Below, in pieces: positions 1 through 27,858 of a stretch of 32,000 nt of DNA. Within the stretch, counting starts at the first letter, position 1; every line of letters begins with the position of its first letter. The stretch covers positions 3,390,001-3,422,000 of the forward strand of contig JAIZWK010000001.1 of the NCBI GenBank assembly GCA_021498095.1, read 5' to 3'. A program made the position numbers and the translations under genes. This stretch comes from Candidatus Harpocratesius repetitus. GTDB taxonomy: Archaea; Asgardarchaeota; Lokiarchaeia; Sigyniarchaeales; Promethearchaeaceae. The notes under the pieces were generated by a model. It made no database searches. It worked only from the letters and a program-made list of their open reading frames with translations, and had not been told where the DNA came from.

Positions 1-460
1 TGAAAATACAAAATCCTCGCGCATTAGCATAGTCAGAGTGATGACCAGGAGGCCGACATAGATTAAAAGCGCGTTCAACTTTTTTTCCCATGATTGCATC
101 AATTGCTGTAAACATTCCTCCAGCAGCATAAAGTGCAGCTACATAACTTTGGGGAGATGCAACTGTTTCACCATATCGTTTACTAAAAGAGTCAAGATAG
201 ATTTGATATGGGACAGTTTTTGCTTCTTCACAGCGAATTTTAGCTGTTTGAATTAAATCTGGAGAATGGCACCATTTTATTTCTTCAACTGTAGCTTTTC
301 TTGGGTTCAAGGGAATAATCCATGGATATCTACCATCTCCATAAAAATTAAGTGAAGTTAATGTATCGATCGTTCCTCTTAATCGTTCGGAATTTTCTGG
401 ATGAGCCCCTGTTTCATGTTGAAGAAAAATCTCATTATAAACAATCCCAACTTTTTTCAC
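1..460 (-). CDS. Histone deacetylase family (Zn-dependent HDAC/AcuC/APAH-like) protein, N-terminal part; runs off the left edge
   Basis: Manual translation from GTG at 460, preceded by SD-like GGTGAG: MKKVGIVYNEIFLQHETGAHPENSERL...RAFNLCRPPGHHSDYANARGFCIF. HPE-x2-RL, RPPGHH and GFCIF are hallmark HDAC-family motifs. Not in the supplied ORF track. Confidence 0.93.
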   Translation of the reverse strand, partial: MKKVGIVYNEIFLQHETGAHPENSERLRGTIDTLTSLNFYGDGRYPWIIPLNPRKATVEEIKWCHSPDLIQTAKIRCEEAKTVPYQIYLDSFSKRYGETVASPQSYVAALYAAGGMFTAIDAIMGKKVERAFNLCRPPGHHSDYANARGFCIF

Positions 461-618
461 TTACTCACCAATTATATTTGAACGAATAATTATAATTAAA
501 TTGATCTTGATTTCGCTTGGATTATTAATGAATAAAATTTTTTATAACTCATATTTTAAAGGATCAAAACCCAAATAAGGATCAAATACAAACTAAAAAT
601 AGAAAAAAAAATTATCGA

Positions 619-1197
619 GTGGAAAGTTCGACTATGACTACCCAAATATATAAACTCAAAATCATCATAATCGGCGAATATGCAGCAGGAAAAACCTCCT
701 TAATAAAAAATTTTGTTGAGGGGGCATATACGAAAGATTATCGTCCCACAATCGGTTCGAACTTATTTATTAAAAAACTCGCATTTAAAGATAAAATAGA
801 TAATGAATATTTTTTCACTATTACAGTGTGGGATATTGCAGGACAAGAAAAGTGGACAAGTTTGCGGCAAACTTATTATCGTGGAGCACAAGGTGTTTTT
901 GTAGTAGGAGATTTAACCCGGAAAAACTCATTTGAGCAAATTGAAAATTTTTGGATCAAAGATTTTAAAGAATTTGGTGGTACTTGTGCAAAAAGTGCTC
1001 CAATTATATTATTAGCAAATAAAAATGACCTTACTCCTGAAATAAAAGAAGAACAGATTCGGGGCATCGCTGAACGCAACGGTGTATTTAAAGTAATATA
1101 TACATCAGCAAAAACTGGTTACCATGTAAATGAAGCCTTTATTGCAATGATTAGAAGTTGTTCTGGTCTTGAGGATATCACACCTATCTCCATTTAA
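619..1197 (+). CDS. Rab-like small GTPase (Ras superfamily); real start may be ATG at 634
   Basis: G1 GEYAAGKTS, G2 RPTIG, G3 WDIAGQE, RabF-like YYRGA, G4 NKND, G5 TSAK. No C-terminal CaaX/CC prenylation motif. Confidence 0.93.
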   Translation: MESSTMTTQIYKLKIIIIGEYAAGKTSLIKNFVEGAYTKDYRPTIGSNLFIKKLAFKDKIDNEYFFTITVWDIAGQEKWTSLRQTYYRGAQGVFVVGDLTRKNSFEQIENFWIKDFKEFGGTCAKSAPIILLANKNDLTPEIKEEQIRGIAERNGVFKVIYTSAKTGYHVNEAFIAMIRSCSGLEDITPISI

Positions 1198-1290
1198 TTG
1201 AATTTCAATTTAATAAAGTTGATTTTGGGTTATTTTCTCCATTACAGAATCGATACTTTTTTAAATTGTCATACTGATATCAATAATACA

Positions 1291-2544
1291 ATGTCACTCT
1301 CACTTTTGGATACAAGTAATTATTATATAGAGAAAGCTCGAATTCCGCTTTCATTGGTTGGAGGAATTGCAGCTTTTATTAAAATTTTGTTCAACTTTTA
1401 TTATCTGGCATATTTTATTGTTACCTATGAGTTAAGCCTTAATTTCTATGATTATATGCCAATTATTAATTTGCGTCCATTTACCAAAATCTTGATTTTC
1501 TTAATATATTTACCTTTAATTTTGAATACATCAGCGGTTCGAAGTAAATCTAAGCGTATAGCAGCATTAATCTTATGGTTTTTGATTTTTGTATTAGCAT
1601 TTATCATTTATTCTATCTCTTTAGATTTTATACCAGTTATTATTATTCAATCATTTAGATATATTTTTGAAATTGCATTTTTTATTATTACTTTTAAAGC
1701 CCGTCCTGTTTTGAACTTTATCTTACTTTTAATTAGAGGACTCAACATAATCTTATTAGTTTTTCGTATTTTAGTGATGTATTCAGATATTAGCACATTG
1801 ATTCCTTTTTCGATAACATATATATATTCAGCAGAATCTTTTATTGTATTTTTTTGGTGGTCTCTATATTTATTTAGTAATACTGGACGCTCAAATGTAG
1901 TTAAATCAAATATGCAGGAATGGACTCAAAATCAAAACTTATCAACAGCAACAACTACAATGTCAACTACAACAGGTTCGGTTCATTCAGATTCAATAGC
2001 ACAAAACACTAATTCAACTGTAATGACAAAAAATCTTGGAAATAATGCTGGTCTTGATAGTGGTGGAACATTTGGTATTCCTCGAGCATTGTTTTATTGT
2101 ACTACATGCAAAAGTCAAAAAAAAATACGATTACAAAAAAATGACATATATCAAGAGAATAAATGTCCAAGTTGTGGAAATATTTTATTAGCTTGGTGGG
2201 CACAATCACCGAAATCTAAATATCTAAAATTTATAATTGGAGTGATGTTCATGGGTGGAGGTTTGTTTTCAATTATGATTGAAGGTATTCTGAATGAAGG
2301 ATTAATACCAGTAATTATAATGAACACTCTAGGAATAATTTATTTGATTATTAGTCTAATTTTGATGTATACAGCAAGTAAATTAGATATTCAAGGACCC
2401 CATCCCACTGCGGCAAAAGTCCTTCCACATGGTGTTTTCGAGCGTTTTGGTTCTGAATTAATTAAAATTACAGTAATTGCAACTATAGGAGGATTATTTC
2501 TATTTGGATTTAACCGCATAATTGTATTTATTGCAGTGTTATAA
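1291..2544 (+). CDS. Multi-pass membrane protein with S/T/N-rich linker and internal Zn-ribbon; ORF open from 1198, ATG at 1291 preferred
   Basis: About 6 hydrophobic segments, then QNQNLSTATTTMSTTTG linker, CTTC...CPSCG Zn-ribbon, then about 3 further TM segments. Confidence 0.7.
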   Translation: MSLSLLDTSNYYIEKARIPLSLVGGIAAFIKILFNFYYLAYFIVTYELSLNFYDYMPIINLRPFTKILIFLIYLPLILNTSAVRSKSKRIAALILWFLIFVLAFIIYSISLDFIPVIIIQSFRYIFEIAFFIITFKARPVLNFILLLIRGLNIILLVFRILVMYSDISTLIPFSITYIYSAESFIVFFWWSLYLFSNTGRSNVVKSNMQEWTQNQNLSTATTTMSTTTGSVHSDSIAQNTNSTVMTKNLGNNAGLDSGGTFGIPRALFYCTTCKSQKKIRLQKNDIYQENKCPSCGNILLAWWAQSPKSKYLKFIIGVMFMGGGLFSIMIEGILNEGLIPVIIMNTLGIIYLIISLILMYTASKLDIQGPHPTAAKVLPHGVFERFGSELIKITVIATIGGLFLFGFNRIIVFIAVL

Positions 2545-2586
2545 ATTTAAAATCTTAAATCTTACTAAATAAAAATAGGAAAAATA

Positions 2587-5385
2587 CTATTTAAAAAATG
2601 AATCTAAATTTGATGGTCTTTCTTTTTTTCTTATTCTAAATTTTGGTAAAGGTTTTGATTCTTTTTCTTTATGTAATTGAGTATATATGCTTATCGCCAA
2701 TGAATGCCCAATTAAAGGAATTTTTTCTAAATCTTCAATTGTAGCGTCTTTCAATTCATTAATATTGTGATATCCTGCATGAAAAATTTTTCGCGCACGA
2801 ACTCGTCCAACACCTTGAATACTTACAAATGGTAAAACACTAGAACGAATACCATATTTAACTCGTTGACTTAAATTCTGCAATTCAGATTCTAAATTAA
2901 GAATTAGAGGCTCTTCTTCACGATCTAAATGCACAATTCTTAAAAATCCCCTTAATAACCATAATGTTAATTCTACAAGCCGGTGAACATCTCCGATACC
3001 TAAATTATAACGCTCGCTGATTTCTTTTATCGAAATTTCGTTAATCCAATCTAAGAGTACCATTGTCATTTTGATTTGTTTTGCAAAATCTTGGAATAAA
3101 AGATCTCCAGGTTCCCAAACTTGCTCCATAATAAAATTATCTTCATGATTTTGAATAAAAAACAGAATCAAATTATATTCATTTTTACGTAAATAATATT
3201 TTGGAAAAGCATCTAATTTTGTTAATAAATGAATCCAACTCACAGGTTGTAGAATGATTTCTTGATTCTGATAAAGTACCTTGGCATAATACAGATCTTC
3301 ACGTAAAGTTATCGCATCTTTGGGTGATAAATAACTTTGACTCACAATTTTTCCAAAATTTGTTGGTATTAAACGCTTATTAGATTGAGATTCATCGATT
3401 TCAACAGATAATAAACTTAAGAGATCTTTTTCGAGAAAATATTCGAGTATATTTGATATGTCTGCCCTTAAGCGAGAATCTGAAAGATAATTTGATTGCT
3501 TAAGCATCTCTGACTTAAATGGAATTAGGTGCGAATCAATATCAACATCAACATCAAGATCCATATTACTAAATTGAGAATTTTGAGAATCGATATTATT
3601 GTTTAAATTTGAAGATAATACAGATAATGAATTTGGTAGATTTGCTGAAATTTCTTTTTTTTCTAAGTTAAAATTTGTAGGTTGAGTTGATCGAGTAGAT
3701 TTGGCAAGTTGGGTAGAGCGTGAGGTATTATTAAACATTTCATCAGCTGTAATAAAATCATTTGAATAAAATTCTGATGAATTAAAAATGTGTAGTGGAT
3801 CTTCCCCTCTACCACCAGAACGATGCTTTTTAGGACGACTCATTACTTTTCTTGAAGTTGCAGGAAAATTACTTTTAGATTTTAACTTTAATTCAGAATT
3901 TGATTGAATTATTGAAGTTTTAGATATGAATTGTTGATAATAATAAAAAGTCTGCTCTATAAATTGGAATAATTGCGTTTGATTCGATACTATTCCGGAA
4001 GTAAAAAGGCTCAATATATGAGATGCTAACTGTGTCTCATCTGATAATTTGCTTATAATTTGCTCTGGTGTTCCATTAATATAGGACTCCGCATCTTTCA
4101 ATAACTTTTCTGGAGAACTTCCTAAAATAACAACTTCTCCGTAAGGATCATATCGAGGGCGCCCAGCTCGTCCTGCCATTTGTTTGTATTCAAGAATGGG
4201 AATTAATACACTACCTTTATCGCCCTCATATCGATATAAACTTTTAATGATTACTCGACGTGCTGGAGTATTAACACCTGCAGCTAAGGTTGGGGTGCAA
4301 CAAATGACTTTGATAATATGAGAATTGAAATTTTTAACAATAAAATCTAATTGATCAGAAGCCATACCAGCATGATGAAAAGCAACCCCTCCTTTTAGAC
4401 ATTGATATAATTTTTTACTGAATTGGCTTTCATCCATGTATTTCTCCTTAAATTCACTCTGAATTTTTAAAAACTGATTCCTTTCTTTATTTGAATATAA
4501 AATACGTATCTTTGGAGAAAGTTCTTCAGCTTCTTGTATTGCACGTTTGCGTGAATTAGTAAAAATTAACACTTGACCACCTTCTTTTAACATATCAATG
4601 GTCAATGAAGCAGAAGATGAATGCCCTGGAATAGAAATTACTCGACGGGATGTACCATCTTTAAATTTAATTTCATCTCCATAATAATATCCTTCCTTCA
4701 AGCGAACAGGACGCCACGTACTTTCAATAAGATCTGCATGTAACCATTCCGCTAATTGCCTTGCATTTTGAATTGTTGCAGAAAGACCAATGATTTGTAT
4801 CGATGATGGATGAGAAAGTAATCGTGTAATTAAAAATTCTAAAGTAACCCCCCGATGAGAGTCATGCAATAGGTGAATTTCATCAATGATAACCATATTA
4901 ATATCATTTAACAGCTTCGGATTCATCCGGAATATGGAATCCGCTTTTTCATTTGTAAGAAATATTATATGATTTTGAAAGATTCGAAAATCTGGTTGAT
5001 CCACATCACTACGAGATATACCTACATGAAAACCAATCCTTTTCCAGTTTTCAGAAAACTCATGGTATTTCTCTGCAGCAAGGGCTTTTAATGGGCACAA
5101 ATATAGAATTTTTCCCCATTTCCCCATTTGCTTTGGAAATTTTTCTCGATTAATTATTAAGTGATTTAGTGCAATAATTTCAGCAATTAACGTTTTTCCT
5201 GAAGCAGTGGGAATACTTATGAGTAAATTGTGTCCATTTAATCCTGGTTTCAAAGCGGTTAATTGAGGAGGATATAAATTTGGAATACCACGCTTATGTA
5301 ATTCTTCTTCCAAAATTCTTGGTAATGATAAGGACTTCCAGTTTGGAATAGAAGGATTATTTGAGTAATTACCAAAATCGGTCAA
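2587..5385 (-). CDS. hel308: Hel308/Hjm Ski2-like SF2 DNA helicase with about 150-aa low-complexity insertion
   Basis: Motif I IPTASGKT, II IIDEIH, III GLSAT, GVAFHHAG, TPTLAAGVNTPA, VI QMAGRAGRP; C-terminal HhH (IQGVGRVRARKIFHAG). TTG start with GGAG SD, 15 bp after the MCM stop. Confidence 0.93.
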   Translation of the reverse strand: MTDFGNYSNNPSIPNWKSLSLPRILEEELHKRGIPNLYPPQLTALKPGLNGHNLLISIPTASGKTLIAEIIALNHLIINREKFPKQMGKWGKILYLCPLKALAAEKYHEFSENWKRIGFHVGISRSDVDQPDFRIFQNHIIFLTNEKADSIFRMNPKLLNDINMVIIDEIHLLHDSHRGVTLEFLITRLLSHPSSIQIIGLSATIQNARQLAEWLHADLIESTWRPVRLKEGYYYGDEIKFKDGTSRRVISIPGHSSSASLTIDMLKEGGQVLIFTNSRKRAIQEAEELSPKIRILYSNKERNQFLKIQSEFKEKYMDESQFSKKLYQCLKGGVAFHHAGMASDQLDFIVKNFNSHIIKVICCTPTLAAGVNTPARRVIIKSLYRYEGDKGSVLIPILEYKQMAGRAGRPRYDPYGEVVILGSSPEKLLKDAESYINGTPEQIISKLSDETQLASHILSLFTSGIVSNQTQLFQFIEQTFYYYQQFISKTSIIQSNSELKLKSKSNFPATSRKVMSRPKKHRSGGRGEDPLHIFNSSEFYSNDFITADEMFNNTSRSTQLAKSTRSTQPTNFNLEKKEISANLPNSLSVLSSNLNNNIDSQNSQFSNMDLDVDVDIDSHLIPFKSEMLKQSNYLSDSRLRADISNILEYFLEKDLLSLLSVEIDESQSNKRLIPTNFGKIVSQSYLSPKDAITLREDLYYAKVLYQNQEIILQPVSWIHLLTKLDAFPKYYLRKNEYNLILFFIQNHEDNFIMEQVWEPGDLLFQDFAKQIKMTMVLLDWINEISIKEISERYNLGIGDVHRLVELTLWLLRGFLRIVHLDREEEPLILNLESELQNLSQRVKYGIRSSVLPFVSIQGVGRVRARKIFHAGYHNINELKDATIEDLEKIPLIGHSLAISIYTQLHKEKESKPLPKFRIRKKERPSNLDSFFK

Positions 5386-9136: not shown

Positions 9137-10264
9137 ATGATGGCAGAAAAAGAAGAACAAACTAACTCTGAATTTCCTTCGGAAGCTGAAGAATCAATCC
9201 AACCTAATCCAGTATCCGAATCAAATGAAATTAAACCATCTAATACGGTTGATAATTCATCTACCGCAAATGATGCACCCACTAGTAAAATAGAATCAAC
9301 CACTAAACCAGAAATTACTCCATTGGAAAAAGCTCTGAAAAGACTAACTGGGAAAAGTTTTAGAGAAAGAAATGAAGCAATTAAGCAACTTGGAAGAATA
9401 AAAGACCCAAAAGCAAAAGATAAACTTATCGAAATTGTTAAAAATGAACGGTGGAACGATCGATTACGAGTGGCAGCATTAGATGCATTAAGTAGAGGAA
9501 AACGTGATATTAATTTCCGCCGATTTTTACAAGATTTAGCCTCGAATATGAAAAATCCTCAAGAAATTCGAAGAAGTGCTTTTACACATTTATCTCGATT
9601 TAGAGATTCAAAACTAATTCCAACATTCTCTGCAGCATTGAAAGAGAAATATCGATTTATTCGATTCTGGGCAGTTCGTGGACTTATTAAAATTGATGAT
9701 CCAAAAGCAACTAGTGCATTAATTCAAGCTTTAGGAGATGAAGATGAAGAAATCCGCAAAGAAGTAATGGCACATTTAGAATCAGGCAATCAAGTTTCAT
9801 TTCCTGCTTTAGTAAAAGCGTTTGAAAACCCTGAATCAAGTAAATTTCTACGATATGGCGCTTTGGGAATTATTGGACGGACTAACCATAATGAACGAAT
9901 TCAAATCTTAATTAAAGCTTTAAAGGATGAAGATCCTCGCATAGTAACAATCGCTCTTCGTGGATTAGGTAAAGCAAAGAATATAAAAGCGATATCTCCA
10001 TTAATTGAGTTATATACGGTTAATAATCGTAAGAGACGCTTGATTGAAGATGCATTATATAGAATTGGTCAAGAACATCAGCAAGAGACCATTAAACTTT
10101 TAGTTCCGCTTCTTGCTCAAGATAATGAAGATTTAGTCAAATTAGCAAAGAATCTTTTAGTTAAATATAATAACTCATATATGATACTTGGAGATTTGAA
10201 AGAATCTGATAAGATTGAACCATCTTTAAAAGAGAAAATTGCAGAATTAATGGAAAATATGTAA
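9137..10264 (+). CDS. HEAT-repeat (PBS lyase HEAT-like) protein with disordered acidic N-terminus
   Basis: Repeated units such as ALKEKYRFIRFWAVRGL, ALGDEDEEIRKEV and ALKDEDPRIVTIALRGLG. Confidence 0.85.
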   Translation: MMAEKEEQTNSEFPSEAEESIQPNPVSESNEIKPSNTVDNSSTANDAPTSKIESTTKPEITPLEKALKRLTGKSFRERNEAIKQLGRIKDPKAKDKLIEIVKNERWNDRLRVAALDALSRGKRDINFRRFLQDLASNMKNPQEIRRSAFTHLSRFRDSKLIPTFSAALKEKYRFIRFWAVRGLIKIDDPKATSALIQALGDEDEEIRKEVMAHLESGNQVSFPALVKAFENPESSKFLRYGALGIIGRTNHNERIQILIKALKDEDPRIVTIALRGLGKAKNIKAISPLIELYTVNNRKRRLIEDALYRIGQEHQQETIKLLVPLLAQDNEDLVKLAKNLLVKYNNSYMILGDLKESDKIEPSLKEKIAELMENM

Positions 10265-20722: not shown

Positions 20723-22002
20723 GTGTCTGAGAGAAAACATTATTGTTATTTTGATTTCAATACATTCAAAACTTGCCATGAATTCATTCATTTATGGCTT
20801 ATCGGAGAATTTATCCCAAAATTCCAGAAAAAAATAACTCAAACAAACTCAGATTGTCCACTTCATAATCAAGCATTTAATCCAAGTCTTCGTTTAGATT
20901 ATTCGCAAAGATCGTATGGGAAAGATGTACTAGAATGTATCGGAGAGTATTCTATTCAAGAAGGCATGAAACCAAAAGATATTCTTACAATTCTTCGTCG
21001 AGAGTATGATCTTCCGATTTCGCTTAGTACCGTCGCTCGTATGTGTAATGATATTCTTGTTTTGACCACACACCATATCGATCAAAACACATACAAAATA
21101 ATTAAACAACAAGATTATATTTTAGTTGCATTTGACGGACAAGAACCTGATGGTGATCATCTGCCGTTGTGGAATTTTACCGATCTTATTTCTGGGCGAG
21201 TTTTAATGACCAAATACTTTGAACGTGTGGATTATCACGTACTTCATGAATCTATTGAAGAAATTATTGCAAATTACAAGAAACCGATCATCGGCTTTGT
21301 AAATGATAAACAAGGGCCTATTCGGAAATGTTTAGAGACATTTTACCCCGAGATTTCACATCAATATTGTACATTTCATTTTTCAAATAATCTTTGGAAT
21401 CATTTGGAAAAATATGCAAATACAATTCAAAATCACTTATTAAAAACGGTAAAAGGACTCTATATTCATAAGGTCTCGACAGATATTAAAATTAAAGTTC
21501 CTCATGAGCCAGAACCAGTATCTTTAAAACAGTTATGTGCTTCTTTAGATAAAGAGATTCAAAAATTAGTAAAAAATCAAAACCTTAAATTTGAAAAGCT
21601 TCGTGGAATAACGAGTTTTGATAAAATTAAGCTTTATATTGAAGAATTTCGCTATTATATCGCTCAAATTCCTGTAGATGATCGTTTTTCAAAAATAATG
21701 AGTAAAACGCTTACAGATTTAGAAAGCGGATGTTCTCAAGTGGAACAACGATATAAACATGCGAAAGAAGGATTAACCTGGTTTAAATCTATTCATACGG
21801 TACTTTGGAAGGATAATCTGAAAAAAGATATACGAATTAGAGAATTAGACAACATTTTCACTGCAATTAACCAAAGAACCTTAAAGATCAATTCCAATTT
21901 TAAACAACAAGAAGCAAAAAGTTTTCTTCCTTCATCTAAAACCCCGTTCTGGAAGATTTTATGTGAATGGAACCGGCTATGGAGAAGTTATAAGCCAAAA
22001 TT
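20723..22002 (+). pseudogene. Mutator-like (IS256/ISH6/ISL3-type) transposase, truncated at its C-terminus by the adjacent IS
   Basis: LVAFDGQEP (D1), GFVNDKQ (D2), QYCTFHF (CxxH). Family-like sequence stops at RSYKPKL, exactly at the IS end at 22003, so the catalytic Glu region is missing. The ORF tail to 22153 is read-through into the IS. Confidence 0.78.
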
Positions 22003-23763
22003 GGGGGTTTGGCGACGTAATCTTCCACAATATAATCAACAAAAAAGAATGGTTCGTATGGAAGATTCTCCAATTATGGACAAATCGCATAGAATAGATT
22101 GTTTGCCCAGTTATCATTTTATATACCAATGCACTTGTCTTGATCATCAGTAAATCTGATTTTACTCTATTTCTAAGATGTTTAGTGCTAATTTTCCAGG
22201 AAGTACTTTGCCCATCTCCGATTAAATCGCCTCGCTTTTTAATTATTCCGTTAATCCCTTCATTTTGTCCCCGTATGTGGTAAACCAAATACCATTCTAT
22301 GGTACCTTGCATTATTTTAGTATTCCCAATTGTTTTCTCAGCATTTGTTCCTGATTTTCGAATCTCTCTACGAATTATTTGAATTTTTTTTCTCTATCGC
22401 CACTCTTTCTTTTGTTCTACAAGAGTCAAACCATGATACCGTGCATATTGGGCCCAATTTGTGAGTGCACGCTTAGTTTCTTTGATCTTAATCTTAAATG
22501 ATATAGGTTTGGGATATTGGGCAAGGTAATACTTCACATCTCTAATCCAAGCCTTCTTTTGAGCTTTTGGAATTCCATTTTTTATTGCTTTTTTAGAGAT
22601 GCTTCTAAGGTTATTTTCTGCCGTTTTTAATTTTTTGAGTAATTTTGAGTTTCTTTTGTTAAAATCAACAAAGGGAATTACATCTGCGGCTTCTATCGCA
22701 TGAATTACCGATGTTGAAGAATATCCCGCATCAGCAGTAATTGCAATGATTTCCGAGCCTGTATCTTTTGCTAACGTTAAAATTGGGTTCAAAGATTGTT
22801 TAAAAAGGGCAACATCTGCAGTTTTCCCCGTTTCAGTTCGTGAGACTATCGGTAAGCAATTTGTTCCGCATCCTATTGATGTTTTATGTCCAAAAAAAAA
22901 CCCCTTGAACCTGTTCCGTTTGAAGCTTCCAAATTCCGACAGTCAACGGATAAGTTACATCCGTCAATCGAGTTTACGCTCAGATCTTGGATATTCTCTT
23001 TAATTAATAATTTATCGATAGCCTTTTCATATATTTGAAGATTTGATTCGAGATAATCGGAGTACCAATATAATTTCTTGATTCCTGGTGGTCGATTTAC
23101 AAATCCGAGTCTGCCTGCTATGTCAAAACAGAGTCTATTATCAATAAAACTAACTGTTTTTAACTTTCCATCAAGTTCTGTGATGCTTGAGATGTGATTA
23201 ATATGTTGATAAATACGAGCATTGAGATGGGCCATCAATTCTCCTCTAGAATATGTGTCATGTTTAGGAAATATTACGGAAGGTGGTATAATTCCTATAA
23301 AACATTCAATAGGAACTGTAATTTTCTGATTAGAAGTAGTAAATATGTTACTGCATACAATCCTTGCAGTATCGCCGATTTTAGTGTAATAGTAGTCTTG
23401 AAATTTGCTAAATAAATTTTCTAATGACGTTGAGTGTAGGTTTAACATGTCTGGAGCGTTTTTATAGACCCAACTATAACTTATGACACGTTTAAATAAT
23501 GATTCCAATCGTTCTTTGATTAAAGGTGCTCGGTCTGATGAAATAATCGAATGAATGACTCCAAGTTCCTTTCCAAATAATGCTGAAAGTATAAGGAAAT
23601 ATACTGTTTGTTTAGCGATATTTTTTCCTCGATTGACAGATTTGATCGATTCATCATAATCTAAGATCTGCTCAATGTCCTGATCAAAAGAAGAAAACCC
23701 CTCAATGATAATGTTTTGGTTGCTTACCGGGAATTTTGAAAAGATTTGATGATTCGGCGCCAT
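21977..23763 (-). pseudogene. DDE transposase in three pieces: frameshift at a T9 run near 22892-22900 and in-frame TAG at 22394-22396
   Basis: Pieces join into SIDGCNL...GFFFGHKT...ITADAGYSS...RGQNEGINGIIKKRG. 22394-22792 and 21977-22312 are in the same frame, separated only by the TAG and 27 sense codons. Confidence 0.8.
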
Positions 23764-23829
23764 CTTTACTAATATTAGGTAATTCTCTTATTTATCGTTT
23801 TTGCAAAAGATTTTTGTCGCTGATCCCCC
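22003..23829 (-). mobile_element. IS5/IS4-superfamily element (1827 bp) with disrupted transposase
   Basis: Imperfect TIRs GGGGGTTTGGCGAC (22003) and GGGGGATCAGCGAC (from 23829, minus strand), 11/14 identical. No TSD. Confidence 0.8.
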
Positions 23830-24044
23830 CTAACTGCCCATAGTCTTGCAGAAAGTGATCGAGTCAAAAGCTTCTGGGTTTGTTTTACCTGTCTGAAATT
23901 TCCGACTTGAGTATCTCGGAAAATCCTCTGTTGGAGATTCTCTACACGATGTTTGATTATGTCCCAATTAATTTGGTCCCAATCTATATCCATCGGTTGG
24001 TTGATGCATACAAATGCTTGATTTGTCTCACGCCTTTCTTCCAT
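23830..24044 (-). pseudogene. N-terminal fragment of group II intron reverse transcriptase/maturase (RVT_N-like)
   Basis: WDQINWDIIKHRVENLQQRIFR...QKLLTRSLSARLWAVR matches the WxxIxW...V..LQ.RI...LQ.LL..S..A.L.AVR pattern. Similarity ends at the IS boundary. Confidence 0.9.
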
Positions 24045-24574
24045 TCAATCATCTCTATTACAGATTTATTTCCAATGGAGTCACGGGTAGTCAGCTTCCT
24101 TTCGGAATGGTTATTAACCTATCCCTTCAATTACAGAAGGGCATTCACTTTCATCCGATCTCTATCTCCCTGCTTATTTACATGGAGATTTTTACGAAGT
24201 TCATATATACAGACAAGATACAACCTTTAGAGACTTGCTATACCCCGAGCATTTTTGATCAGATAGATATGTAAAAAAAGAATACATATCCTAATGCCAG
24301 TGCCTTCTTTGGTCGTCACAGTGTATCAACTCCCTTTCACTGCGTAAGTTTAACGAGGCTTCAGTTACAAGTTCACCGAAGTTTCTCATGGGTTGTTTTG
24401 GCTAGCCCTATCTGCATGGGGAGTTAGCAGAATCGGTACATTACCACACATGCTTTGAAACCCCACTCTTTTGGATAGGAGTTCGAGTGATTGCCACGAA
24501 TAGTCTGATTCTATTGCCAGTTTTTATATGTCATCTCTTTCTGGATTCTATATATACGCTTATCTTCGTCGCAC
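23830..24574 (-). mobile_element. Group II intron B (IIB/CL-like), 5' portion: DI-DIV and start of RT ORF, cut by the IS at 23829
   Basis: 5' end GTGCGACGAAG at 24574. EBS1 hairpin GGATATGTA-TTCTTTTTT-TACATATCT. Downstream ORF is an intron RT N-terminus. Confidence 0.9.
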
Positions 24575-24600
24575 CTTTTTGGAACCACGCGTGCGAGTTT
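24575..24600 (-). other. 26-nt exon remnant = 3' half of domain V and DV/DVI linker of a host group II intron
   Basis: AAACTCGCACGCGTGGTTCCAAAAAG vs AAACCTGCACGTGTGGTTCCTAAAAG in intron C (27055-27080): 22/26 identical. Confidence 0.88.
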
Positions 24601-24877
24601 GTCGGGTAAGTCAAGATCCTTGCAGATCCTTTTCCCCCTAAGAACGGAATGTGCCCCTTTCAAGGCATTCTGCTCGAGCCTGCAGCACTGAAACTGTCAC
24701 CAGTCCATTCCTCCCTTGTGTTCATAGGAATGATAGAAGATTATTTTATCCCACCACTTGAGGGTTATTAATGCATTGAGGTTTGTTACGCCATGTTTTC
24801 CAGTATCTTGGATTCATCGGGCTTTTATTGCCAACTTTCCATCTGTATTTCATTCGTGGAGTATCTTGAAAATAAAT
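24601..24877 (-). mobile_element. Group II intron A, 3' remnant: end of RT ORF, DV and DVI, cut by the IS at 24878
   Basis: Canonical 34-nt DV GAGCAGAAT-GCCTT-GAAA-GGGGC-AC-ATTCCGTTC (24675-24642). DVI ends CTTACCCGAC at 24601. ORF remnant 24877-24746 reads ...WKVGNKSPMNPRYWKTWRNK..., a maturase C-terminal-like segment. Confidence 0.9.
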
Positions 24878-26345
24878 CAGTCTTTAAGGTTATATTTTTA
24901 ATTCATAAAAAATAACCCCCTTTCTTCTTTTTGTAAAAATCATAAATTATCCATGATATTACTTTTAATATTTTTTATGATTTTACTTGATATGCGTAAA
25001 TGATAAACAGACAGAGTCATTTTCCACTTTTTCTGCTTCAATCGCAGTTGCTGCTTTCAGTAATATTCTCAGCAATTAAAGATATATGCATGAAGATAAA
25101 GTTCAGCAATTTGCGTGGTAGACTTTTGATTTCGGTAAGATATATGAATCTCATTAAGCATTCTAAAGCTGATTTCTTCAAACCATCGTTTTTTATATGT
25201 TTTTAAAAGCCATCGGCTCCATCGGGCTTGATTTTTATGAGGTCGTAGTGTTGTGAAGAATCCCTCAAGTTCCTCTATTGCTTGGTCAAAACTTATTTTA
25301 TTTTGAAGGAATTTTTGACGGATTTCCAAAGCTGATTGGCTTTTATGTGCAGTTAAAACTAAATGCAAATGTACCGAACTCGGCCAAGGTTTTGTCCCAG
25401 GGTTCTGAGAGAAGAAATATTTGTCAGAAATAGGTCGTTTTCCTAATAATAAATCGCTGAACGCCCTCTTGACATGTTTGAAACGCTTAGCAGACATTAA
25501 CACAGACAATTTTTGTAATTATAATTCTTTAACCAGAGCTGCACGCTAAAATTCACGATCCATTAACACATAGTTTAGGTTAGATCCTTGAAATTTCAAC
25601 GATTTTGCACTAATACCAATGTGTCTTAAGCGATATTGTCCATATCTGAGCAATCAAATCTCAGAAAAAAGAATATGTCCGCAACCTTGAAGAGCAAAAC
25701 CTTGGAACAAACGGGTCTTATGAGTTCCTTGTTGTTTATGCGTACCAACCTCCAAAGGTGGTTGAATCTTTCTATAGTAAGGATATTCGGTGTTATCAAC
25801 CAAGAGACGCATTTTTGAACCTTTGATCTCTTCTTTTCGGATTTCCATATTAACTCGATTTAAAAGGTTTTCAAAAATAAAATGAATATCTTTATTGGAA
25901 AGCAACCTAAAAAATTTGTCCACATCCGTTTGATAGGATATTAAGCGACGTTTTCAGACTCCATCTTTAAATTCCTTTATTCTTAATAATTTTCTTTTGC
26001 AATAATATTGTCCAAAATAATTATTAAGAAATTCTGAAGCATATGTCGTTGATTATTTAGTTACCATTGCATAAAGCTTTACAAGTATAAAATCCGAATA
26101 TGTATAAAGCCTCGGCTTGAATATTTTCGCGATTCCTGTTTGACTCCCTAAACCTTCGATATAAGATTTAAATTCTCCGCTGAAAAATAAATCTTGAGGA
26201 AAAATTGGGATGATCGACGAGGGAATCGCCGCTTCCGTAATAGATGACATAATCCATCAATTGAATATTCCTCTTTTCCTTCAAAAGCGTTTCGGTTCTC
26301 TATTATTGCTGGTTTAAATCGGCGCATTTATAACTTTGAAGACTG
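24878..26345 (-). mobile_element. ISH3-family insertion sequence (1468 bp) with decayed transposase
   Basis: TIRs CAGTCTTTAAGGTTATA and CAGTCTTCAAAGTTATA (15/17). CAGT termini are typical of the ISH3 group. No TSD. Confidence 0.85.
25069..26250 (-). pseudogene. ISH3-type DDE transposase pseudogene (several in-frame stops and frameshifts)
   Basis: Fragments contain LLVDNTEYPYY (D1), VLMDREF* (D2) and TYKKRWFEEISFR (E). In-frame TAA and TGA lie between the 26053-26250 and 25654-25923 pieces. Confidence 0.85.
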
Positions 26346-26347
26346 TT

Positions 26348-27114
26348 GTGCGACAAGAAGCACTATAACTGAATACATGACATGATTCTAACAGAAATAG
26401 AAACTGCCGACAAATTGACTGTCGATGGCTATGTGGACATGCATTATTAATAATGATTTTGTGTGAAGCTCCACGGACAATGTACCATCAGCATCCAACG
26501 AGATGATGGTTGTGGGCCAGCCAATGTGCCCATGGGAAACGAAAGTGAAGACATGATAAACTCCGTGATCGAGAATTGGTGAAATAATTTGACACACCAT
26601 AACCAAAAGGTAAATTGCCAGGTAGAGCAAGTAACAGTTTTGCTCTTTGTCATCCGTTGCGCAATCGGAGGAAAGTGTCTCCCTAAAGACACAATTGAAA
26701 GTCAGTTATAGCGAACTTGGTAAACCTCATATTCGCCAGCAATGCTGGTATCTTGGAGACAAGAAAAAGGGATGGACTAGGAGGTAGAGGATGCAGGAAA
26801 AAGCGAAAACAGATCTGTAATCGATCTGATAGGATCTTATGAAATCATTCATTGAACTGACTTGAGGACATGAAATTCATGGAAAACGTAATTCTGAAAA
26901 GATCTTTCGAGAAACCCGAAGTTTAAACTGGAGTTTAAAATCTTAATCAATAAACCAGTGGTAACAGAGGGAAATTGGGAATTCATAAGAAATTATGAAT
27001 CCCTAAAGACATGGTGACATGATCGGGTGCTCAAGGTGCGAGCTACATGCGAGGAAACCTGCACGTGTGGTTCCTAAAAGAGGGAAGTACCGTAAGATAC
27101 CTTCCTTATTTAAC
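26348..27114 (+). ncRNA. Group II intron C, complete and ORF-less (767 nt, IIB-like ribozyme)
   Basis: 5' GTGCGACAAG at 26348. EBS1 hairpin AGAGCAA-GTAACAGTT-TTGCTCT. DV GAGCTACAT-GCGAG-GAAA-CCTGC-AC-GTGTGGTTC (27040-27073). DVI ends TTATTTAAC at 27114. No long ORF inside. Confidence 0.92.
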
Positions 27115-27858
27115 TTAGTTTTTCATATTTCTATTCTTAAAAATTTTACAAATATGGTTTAAAGATTTTATCCCCATTCCACATTCTTGAATTAAAAATT
27201 CTCCAGTAGACAGATTTTTGTTTAATTTATTAATTATTGATTTTTCTACGTTTTTGTGCTAAAACTTGGACTCTCGAATTCTTTTTAGAAATATATTTTA
27301 AAAGGTTATGAGGCTTTAGTAATTTTTTTTAATTTAATCAAAATCTATCTTTTGAGCCAATTTTCATGACAATACTTCCATGCATCCAATTATTATTTGA
27401 GTCGGTATTTTTACAATCTTAAATTCGATTAATAATTTCATATTTTTATCATTTTTCTTTGAATTATTGACTTAATCTTATTTTTTTTCTTTAACTATCT
27501 TTCGACAAATTTAAAATTAAGATAGATTTGGGGATTGTGGAAAATTTAGAGAAGATTTTCGGATTTCCTTCAATTTTTCGAAATCTACTAAAACATCTTA
27601 TATGTTTTTTTATTATATTTAAATATTCAAAGTTTTTTCAATTATCGTTTTAATTTTTAAAGAATTCAGCAAATATTAAAGATGCAATCTTTTTGAATAC
27701 ACATTAGTTGAATTTAAGCTATGTTATGGCTGAATTAATATAATTTGTTCACAATTGATTATTTATAAGAAATATTGTTCATGATAAAATAAAAGGATTA
27801 AAATATAACGAAAAAAAGCATAAAGGTTGTTTTAAAAAAGAAAAATAGAATTTAGTGA

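Follow-up and report, generated by a model that had tools for sequence, protein, structure and literature searches.

Introduction

The homing of introns into other introns is an established habit, known from Methanosarcina and Thermosynechococcus (PMC2882425). Several intron lineages of Methanosarcina acetivorans insert site-specifically into other group II introns, according to the account that PMC4424553 gives of Dai & Zimmerly 2003. Twintrons of Thermosynechococcus elongatus carry the intron TeI3 inside TeI4 (Mohr, Ghanem & Lambowitz 2010, PMC2882425). In the twintrons of Euglena plastids, an inner intron can break up a catalytic domain of the outer one, forcing sequential splicing (PMC4424553, PMC3534033). 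Nested introns that decay have been described from plant mitochondria as 'zombie' twintrons (Zumkeller, Gerke & Knoop 2020, PMC7049729), and a twintron of Trichodesmium has its inner intron in domain I (PMC4649490). Nesting is unmentioned in a preprint on archaeal and Asgard group II introns (10.1101/2024.12.10.627823).

The DNA analysed here, referred to as the window, is a stretch of 32,000 nucleotides from the closed genome (4.36 Mb, 31 % G+C; G000) of the Asgard archaeon Candidatus Harpocratesius repetitus. On its minus strand, a 3' fragment of one group II intron (A) and a 5' fragment of another (B) flank a remnant of a third, the host, which is of a type termed C-type. To the extent that PMC4424553 describes them, the insertions of M. 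acetivorans resemble this locus in being archaeal, in having no host gene in their flanks and in being offset by deletions that leave fragments behind. The D1 model RF02012, which fits C- and A-type introns, also matches in M. acetivorans. The window differs in that the targets are ribozyme segments, namely the DV loop and the DVI 5' strand, and not an ORF, and in being a three-piece relic in an Asgard host. With T. elongatus it shares the proliferation of CL/IIB-type introns via a conserved site in another intron or IS, and inner introns that are near-identical between copies whose hosts have diverged (PMC2882425). However, the T. elongatus site lies in DIV between two start codons, where insertion is harmless to the ribozyme, whereas the site here lies in DVI; that species also has many occupied copies per genome and mobility shown experimentally, whereas here there is one copy per genome, known from sequence (PMC2882425). 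The outer introns of the zombie and Trichodesmium twintrons still splice, whereas the outer intron of the window is reduced to 26 nt (PMC7049729, PMC4649490). The Euglena introns are organellar, degenerate and ORF-less and splice within essential genes, in contrast to the apparently dead prokaryotic retroelements of the window, which lie in a junk region. In 1991, Copertino & Hallick reportedly described an inner intron in domain V for psbF of the Euglena plastid.

Results

On the minus strand, intron A has its 3' end exactly at 24601 and intron B its 5' end exactly at 24574, which leaves 26 nt between them. The text of this strand runs ...CTTACCCGAC to 24601, AAACTCGCACGCGTGGTTCCAAAAAG from 24600 to 24575 and GTGCGAC... 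from 24574; read over a longer distance, it is ...GATCTTGACTTACCCGAC to 24601, then AAACTCGCACGCGTGGTTCCAAAAAG, then GTGCGACGAAG... from 24574. All three pieces are fragments, comprising 276 nt of A (24601..24876), 26 nt of the host (24575..24600) and 745 nt of B (23830..24574). The rest of B is replaced by a unique, degenerate IS-like stretch, element Y (22394..23829, minus strand), and A is cut at 24877 by the terminus of a decayed ISH3-like insertion sequence, IS X (24877..26347, minus strand). Beyond IS X lies intron C (26348..27114), a complete ORF-less C-type group II intron of 767 nt. It is on the plus strand, opposite to A, the host piece and B, and had served the preliminary description of this DNA as the reference for the host type.

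That description had read the 26-nt spacer as the 3' half of a DV with 22 of 26 positions identical to intron C. The same figure was obtained here against the DV 3' half of intron C (27055-27080, plus strand; four differences), and the reading of the spacer was borne out by alignment to C-type copies and to a second genome of the genus (G002). Within G000 the spacer matches C-type copies at 787353-787378 (25/26) and 1643787-1643812 (24/26), with BLAST E-values against the 4.36 Mb genome of 4.7e-6 and 5.7e-5, and it matches the host intron in G002 at 25/26. It begins with the final 3 nt of the GAAA loop of DV and continues through the DV 3' strand and a 2-nt linker into the first 5 nt of DVI. 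At the level of sequence, these matches confirm the spacer as a piece of the DV/DVI of a C-type intron. Alignment to uninterrupted C-type copies placed the A junction at G|AAA of the GAAA loop, where it had been put before, and the B junction after AAAAAG. The earlier placement of B at the DV/DVI junction is only approximately right, because 7 nt separate B from the last DV pair and the insertion point is inside the DVI 5' strand. There are six DV/DVI matches in the whole G000 genome, and neither an orphan 5' half of a C-type DV nor an orphan DVI remainder was found anywhere in it.

Repeats and mobile elements crowd the region, and such a setting could produce an assembly chimera or a chance resemblance. 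However, a Logan contig from the probable source sample covers 23600-24910 and crosses all four window junctions with 0 differences, and the B/host junction is present in three other metagenomes (vent and sediment; Logan contigs of the G002 type) as well as in G002. The non-source contigs were counted as evidence only for the parts of the stretch that they cover. A chimera had been named beforehand as an outcome that would overturn the nesting, and the junctions are present in this independent assembly of the source reads. A chance resemblance is opposed by the E-value of the 26-nt match in the genome (4.7e-6) and by its position exactly between two intron termini. Either explanation is therefore extremely improbable.

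The B fragment begins with GUGCG at 24574 and includes DI-DIII and the first 72 RT codons (ATG at 24044), for which the RVT_N match has an E-value of 8e-15. Its DI aligns with the DI of I700-type introns and of B-like introns, and B can be classed as a group II intron by its GUGYG 5' end together with a DI homologous to that of a complete intron. The Rfam D1-D4 models gave no match on B, including in a sensitive small-region scan. DV/DVI and most of the RT are missing from B in the window, where homology to full-length B ends at 23830, and no further piece of its RT was found in the G000 genome.

A DNA search of 60 relatives located an intact copy of B in G002. The spacer and B (window 24600..23830) are 99 % identical there, and the match begins exactly at the first base of the spacer. 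Upstream of this base, A is absent; G002 instead has the end of a C-type RT gene and then, adjoining the spacer, an intact 5' half of a C-type DV. The full-length B, whose first 745 nt correspond to the window fragment, is 2247 nt long with its own DV/DVI, and encodes an intact protein of 510 aa (RVT_N+RVT_1+GIIM) without an endonuclease domain. B is followed directly by 34 nt, of which 28 are identical to the C-type DVI remainder; in uninterrupted C-type copies, this remainder follows AAAAAG without a gap. Because the host DVI resumes directly after B, the insertion in G002 was precise, with no bases gained or lost and neither duplication nor deletion, which is the signature of reverse splicing. 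In G002, B is thus a twintron component in the full sense of an inner intron flanked on both sides by contiguous outer intron; in the window, each inner intron keeps one boundary only, against 26 nt of host. The G002 host is itself 5'-truncated and starts about 190 nt upstream of B.

A single one of the 26 host positions is different between G000 and G002, as are six of the 745 positions of B. This similarity would fit two independent insertions or one event that later spread, and does not separate them. The G002 locus (L013, G002:C18; B at 2487-4733, minus strand) is not syntenic with window 23830-24600, and its neighbouring genes are 70-84 % identical, against 99 % for B and the 26 nt; because of this difference at non-syntenic loci, the comparison points to a recent, horizontal spread of B. 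When genome contigs were searched with the B RT protein, the matches beyond G002 and one Promethearchaeum MAG were mostly cyanobacterial RTs (29-47 % identity) and contributed nothing on flanks; the nearest outside relatives are cyanobacterial, at 35-47 % identity.

Several features of the wider B family were also recorded. Introns of the B family and the I700 type seem to end in ...GAUUCUUG or ...GAUUCAUG and not in the usual AY (L013 rc 9500-9514; L017 5310-5322; G000:C1:~702310-702326), and the 3' boundary of the B family is fixed by the exact resumption of the host in two nests. G000:C1 contains three CL-like introns of the I700 type, located after T-runs at 700165-702330, 1130070-1132210 and 1006866-1007680; one is full length with an in-frame stop in its RT, one is broken and one is an 834-nt 5' fragment. 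In a further genome (G019:C58; L017 2959-7420), DI of a C-type intron that encodes an RT is interrupted at 3095-5322 by a full-length B-like intron with 66 % identity to B; the inner intron in Trichodesmium has a similar position (PMC4649490). The site of the B-like intron is ...AUGGGAAA|CGA, with an EBS1 loop that matches the flank, and the site is conserved in intron C at 26539|26540. The first base of this intron is A and not G, and it may be dead.

Recognition of the target by B was examined from the loops able to pair with its flanks. The EBS1 proposed previously, CUUUUU (24280..24275), belongs to a hairpin with a loop of 9 nt (24282..24274) and a stem of 8 bp, and all six bases of CUUUUU pair with the flank AAAAAG. 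The EBS1 loop of B is UUCUUUUUU with flank AAAAAG, and that of the B-like intron in G019:C58 is GUUUUCCCU with flank GGGAAA; the loop UUUUCCC of the latter is complementary to its GGGAAA flank, as in the pair of B. In an alignment of four introns (B, two B-like introns of G019 and one of the I700 type in G000), the EBS1 stem co-varies and the loop differs. The EBS1-IBS1 pairing, which co-varies in this diverged relative, has good covariation support and is real. The EBS2 proposed alongside it, GACCA, fared differently. It falls in ACCAAA, a motif that all four introns share despite their unrelated flanks and that hence stays constant when the target changes. About 16 5-mers of the intron, GACCA among them, would pair equally well with the sequence upstream of the insertion. 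In the homologous single-stranded segment, I700 shows 8/8 pairing with its flank, whereas B shows a weak pairing of about 4 bp. An EBS2 is not established for B, because GACCA lies in an invariant motif and the homologous segment offers only about 4 bp.

The distribution of the nest was surveyed in 161 genomes of the class. The pattern 'DV 3' strand + 5 nt + GTGYG' had exact matches in G000 and G002 only, and across this set neither a nest of B at this site beyond these two genomes of one genus nor a complete C-type host carrying B was found. Elsewhere, the only B-like DNA consists of the copies in G019, which have diverged, and a handful of short matches to the RT. G002 has no other C-type DV, so that its sole target is occupied; empty target sites with a perfect IBS1 are present in G000 and G001.

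The 3' fragment of intron A is fitted at 24677..24601 by the DV+DVI covariance model RF00029 with 40.6 bits, barely above the gathering score of 40, and by this model A is a group II intron. It keeps the last ~41 codons of an RT/maturase (about 24871..24746, stop included), followed by DV and DVI. The C-terminal peptide ...FQDTPRMKYRWKVGNKSPMNPRYW... aligns with the proteins of A-like introns of G012 and G001. DV/DVI of A-like introns in five genomes are 71-82 % identical to that of A, and the ...CCCGAC terminus of A is shared by all A-like introns in five related genomes. The 5' end, DI-DIV and a complete RT/maturase are all missing from A in the window, where IS X starts at 24877. With its 5' end and upstream flank lost, the insertion of A is visible from the 3' side only, and its EBS is unreadable. 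BLAST searches of G000 with the A and B fragments found each as a single copy, which yields no further flanks in this genome.

Among A-like introns, none of eight 3' ends (G001, G006, G007, G012, G013, G019) has a DV flank, and four of these eight flanks encode the residues following RYADD in an RT gene. For example, the 5' flank of the A-like intron of G001:C3 encodes ...IRYADD, and the intron interrupts the RT gene of a C-type intron (L014; D1 280-401, DV 4750-4826). A second twintron of the same build, 70 % identical, is present at G001:C105. A scan of metagenomes for the junction of the A end with the DV half gave 33 matches, all due to chance, in unrelated high-GC contigs.

RT-encoding A-like introns located after the RYADD codons of C-type RT genes (5' flank ...IRYADD|F-V-V...) were recorded at L014 (G001:C3) 206-4826, L058 (G001:C105) and L007 (G006). 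The two 70 %-identity copies in G001 are full A-like/C-type twintrons, and G001:C269 has an empty RYADD site (L015, ~1290-1330).

The homing of both introns into DV had been put forward in the preliminary description, together with the prediction that most copies in related genomes would have DV/DVI flanks and that intact nests would exist elsewhere. For B this stands narrowly, for one site in one genus, with the DV/DVI flank and the intact nest of G002; no wider pattern was detected at the site among the 161 class genomes. For A the proposal fails, as the window is a single case, all eight A-like flanks are non-DV and the metagenome matches are due to chance. A in the DV loop is a single and probably ectopic insertion. 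Insertion is the simplest reading of the A junction as its sequence stands, because the junction falls at the exact 3' terminus of A.

IS X, into whose inverted-repeat terminus A runs at 24877, has terminal inverted repeats of about 16 bp. The genome has at least five other full-length copies (~68 % identity) that share these ends and are flanked by short target duplications. No matching duplication accompanies the copy in the window, which indicates that the flanks of this copy were rearranged. The transposase of an intact copy matched the ISH3 family model NF033541 with an E-value of 1.7e-10, below the curated cut-off. Element Y has two ORFs (23763..22873 and 22792..22394), the second with weak matches to DDE_Tnp_1 and the IS1182 family. 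No other copy of Y was found in the G000 genome, and an inverted-repeat search for its ends gave nothing convincing.

Intron C, which begins with GTGCG at 26348, was matched by RF02012 (D1) at 26407-26539 with 58.8 bits and by RF00029 at 27038-27114 with 46.3 bits. It starts two bases outside the IS X terminus (26345-26347), and its loop AACAGU (26633-26638) complements the flank ACUGUU. A junction between the reverse complement of a C-type 5' end and an X terminus recurs near 1642660 (G000:C1:1642632-1642694), at an X copy that is ~68 % diverged. C-type introns seem to target the end of the ISH3-like IS X. It was also considered whether the X/C-type arrangement at 1642660-1643846 is linked to the window locus, and such a link was rejected, the junction of C 5' end and IS terminus being all that they have in common and the nest being absent there. 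A MITE-like repeat of ~95-118 nt at window 27283-27400, which probably extends past 27400, has more than 25 copies in the genome with 81-100 % identity, and beside the nest a 476-aa ORF at window 20723-22153 (plus strand) has weak matches to MULE/IS256-family transposases.

Discussion

The locus is likely to be the fossil of successive retroelement insertions in an Asgard genome of the Promethearchaeum family. The first occupant of the locus would have been a group II intron of the C-type, either whole or as a 3' fragment. B, a CL-like intron lacking an endonuclease, would then have reverse-spliced in after AAAAAG in the 5' strand of the host DVI, guided mainly by its EBS1 loop CUUUUU. A would have inserted after the first base of the GAAA loop of the host DV, the order of A and B being left free. 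Subsequently, the ISH3-like IS X and an associated rearrangement would have taken the 5' part of A and the upstream host, and the second IS-like element, Y, or a deletion would have taken the 3' part of B and the host DVI.

The nesting could also be reversed. A would then have been present first, and a composite of C-type host and B would have retrotransposed to a position just after it, with truncation to 26 nt of host by incomplete reverse transcription; A would never have entered any DV loop. Fragments of the C-type 3' end that are 5'-truncated at varied break points are indeed common (1643708, the G002 host, 786237-787412), and the 99 % identity of the 26 nt plus B to G002, against 70-84 % for the flanking genes, fits a recent movement of the two as a unit. 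However, the break would have had to fall precisely at the final nucleotide of A, the end shared by all A-like introns, a coincidence that the simple model of successive insertions does not need. There is also no complete C-type host carrying B in the 161 class genomes, and the host fragments lack DI-DIV and would be unable to mobilise themselves. Reversed nesting is on balance unlikely, and successive insertion into a C-type host is preferred.

The preliminary description had gone further and proposed an ordered three-step cascade, in which A and B splice in turn and the host then rebuilds its DV/DVI and splices. Were all the parts present, the geometry would force ordered splicing; the intact B of G002 could splice, and sequential splicing of twintrons is established elsewhere (PMC4424553, PMC4649490). 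The parts themselves argue against it. A lacks DI-DIV, B lacks the RT core and DV/DVI, and the host lacks DI-DIV, the 5' half of DV and DVI. There is no intact group II RT in G000, where the best copy has an in-frame stop. A complete outer intron was found neither in G000, where the DV 5' half, the DVI remainder and DI-DIV are absent, nor in G002, where about 190 nt of host precede B. A working three-intron nest in the window is very unlikely, and the cascade cannot operate at this locus, because all three elements are fragments cut by the ISH3-like IS and the second IS-like element. Judged by what remains of it, the locus is a dead relic in a graveyard of mobile elements, and nothing in this nest would still be able to splice. 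The relevance to spliceosome ancestry that had been suggested does not follow from such a relic, which has no bearing on spliceosome origins.

The locus documents the nesting of group II introns in an Asgard archaeon. With the intact copy in a sister species, it also provides a clean natural example of an intron whose EBS1 has apparently redirected it to the DV-DVI region of a second intron. A-like introns are found after RYADD codons, a B-like intron in the DI of a C-type intron and intron C at an IS terminus, so that the introns of this archaeal family live largely in other mobile elements, the habit already described for Methanosarcina. It is conceivable, though doubtful, that intron lineages specialised on different segments of C-type introns (the RYADD codons, the DI site, the DV loop and the DVI 5' strand) form a self-sustaining intron-on-intron community. 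If this is true, the intact B in organisms of the G002 type would still splice out of the catalytic core of its host, and a complete twintron of host and B, with obligatory ordered splicing, would exist somewhere in the genus.
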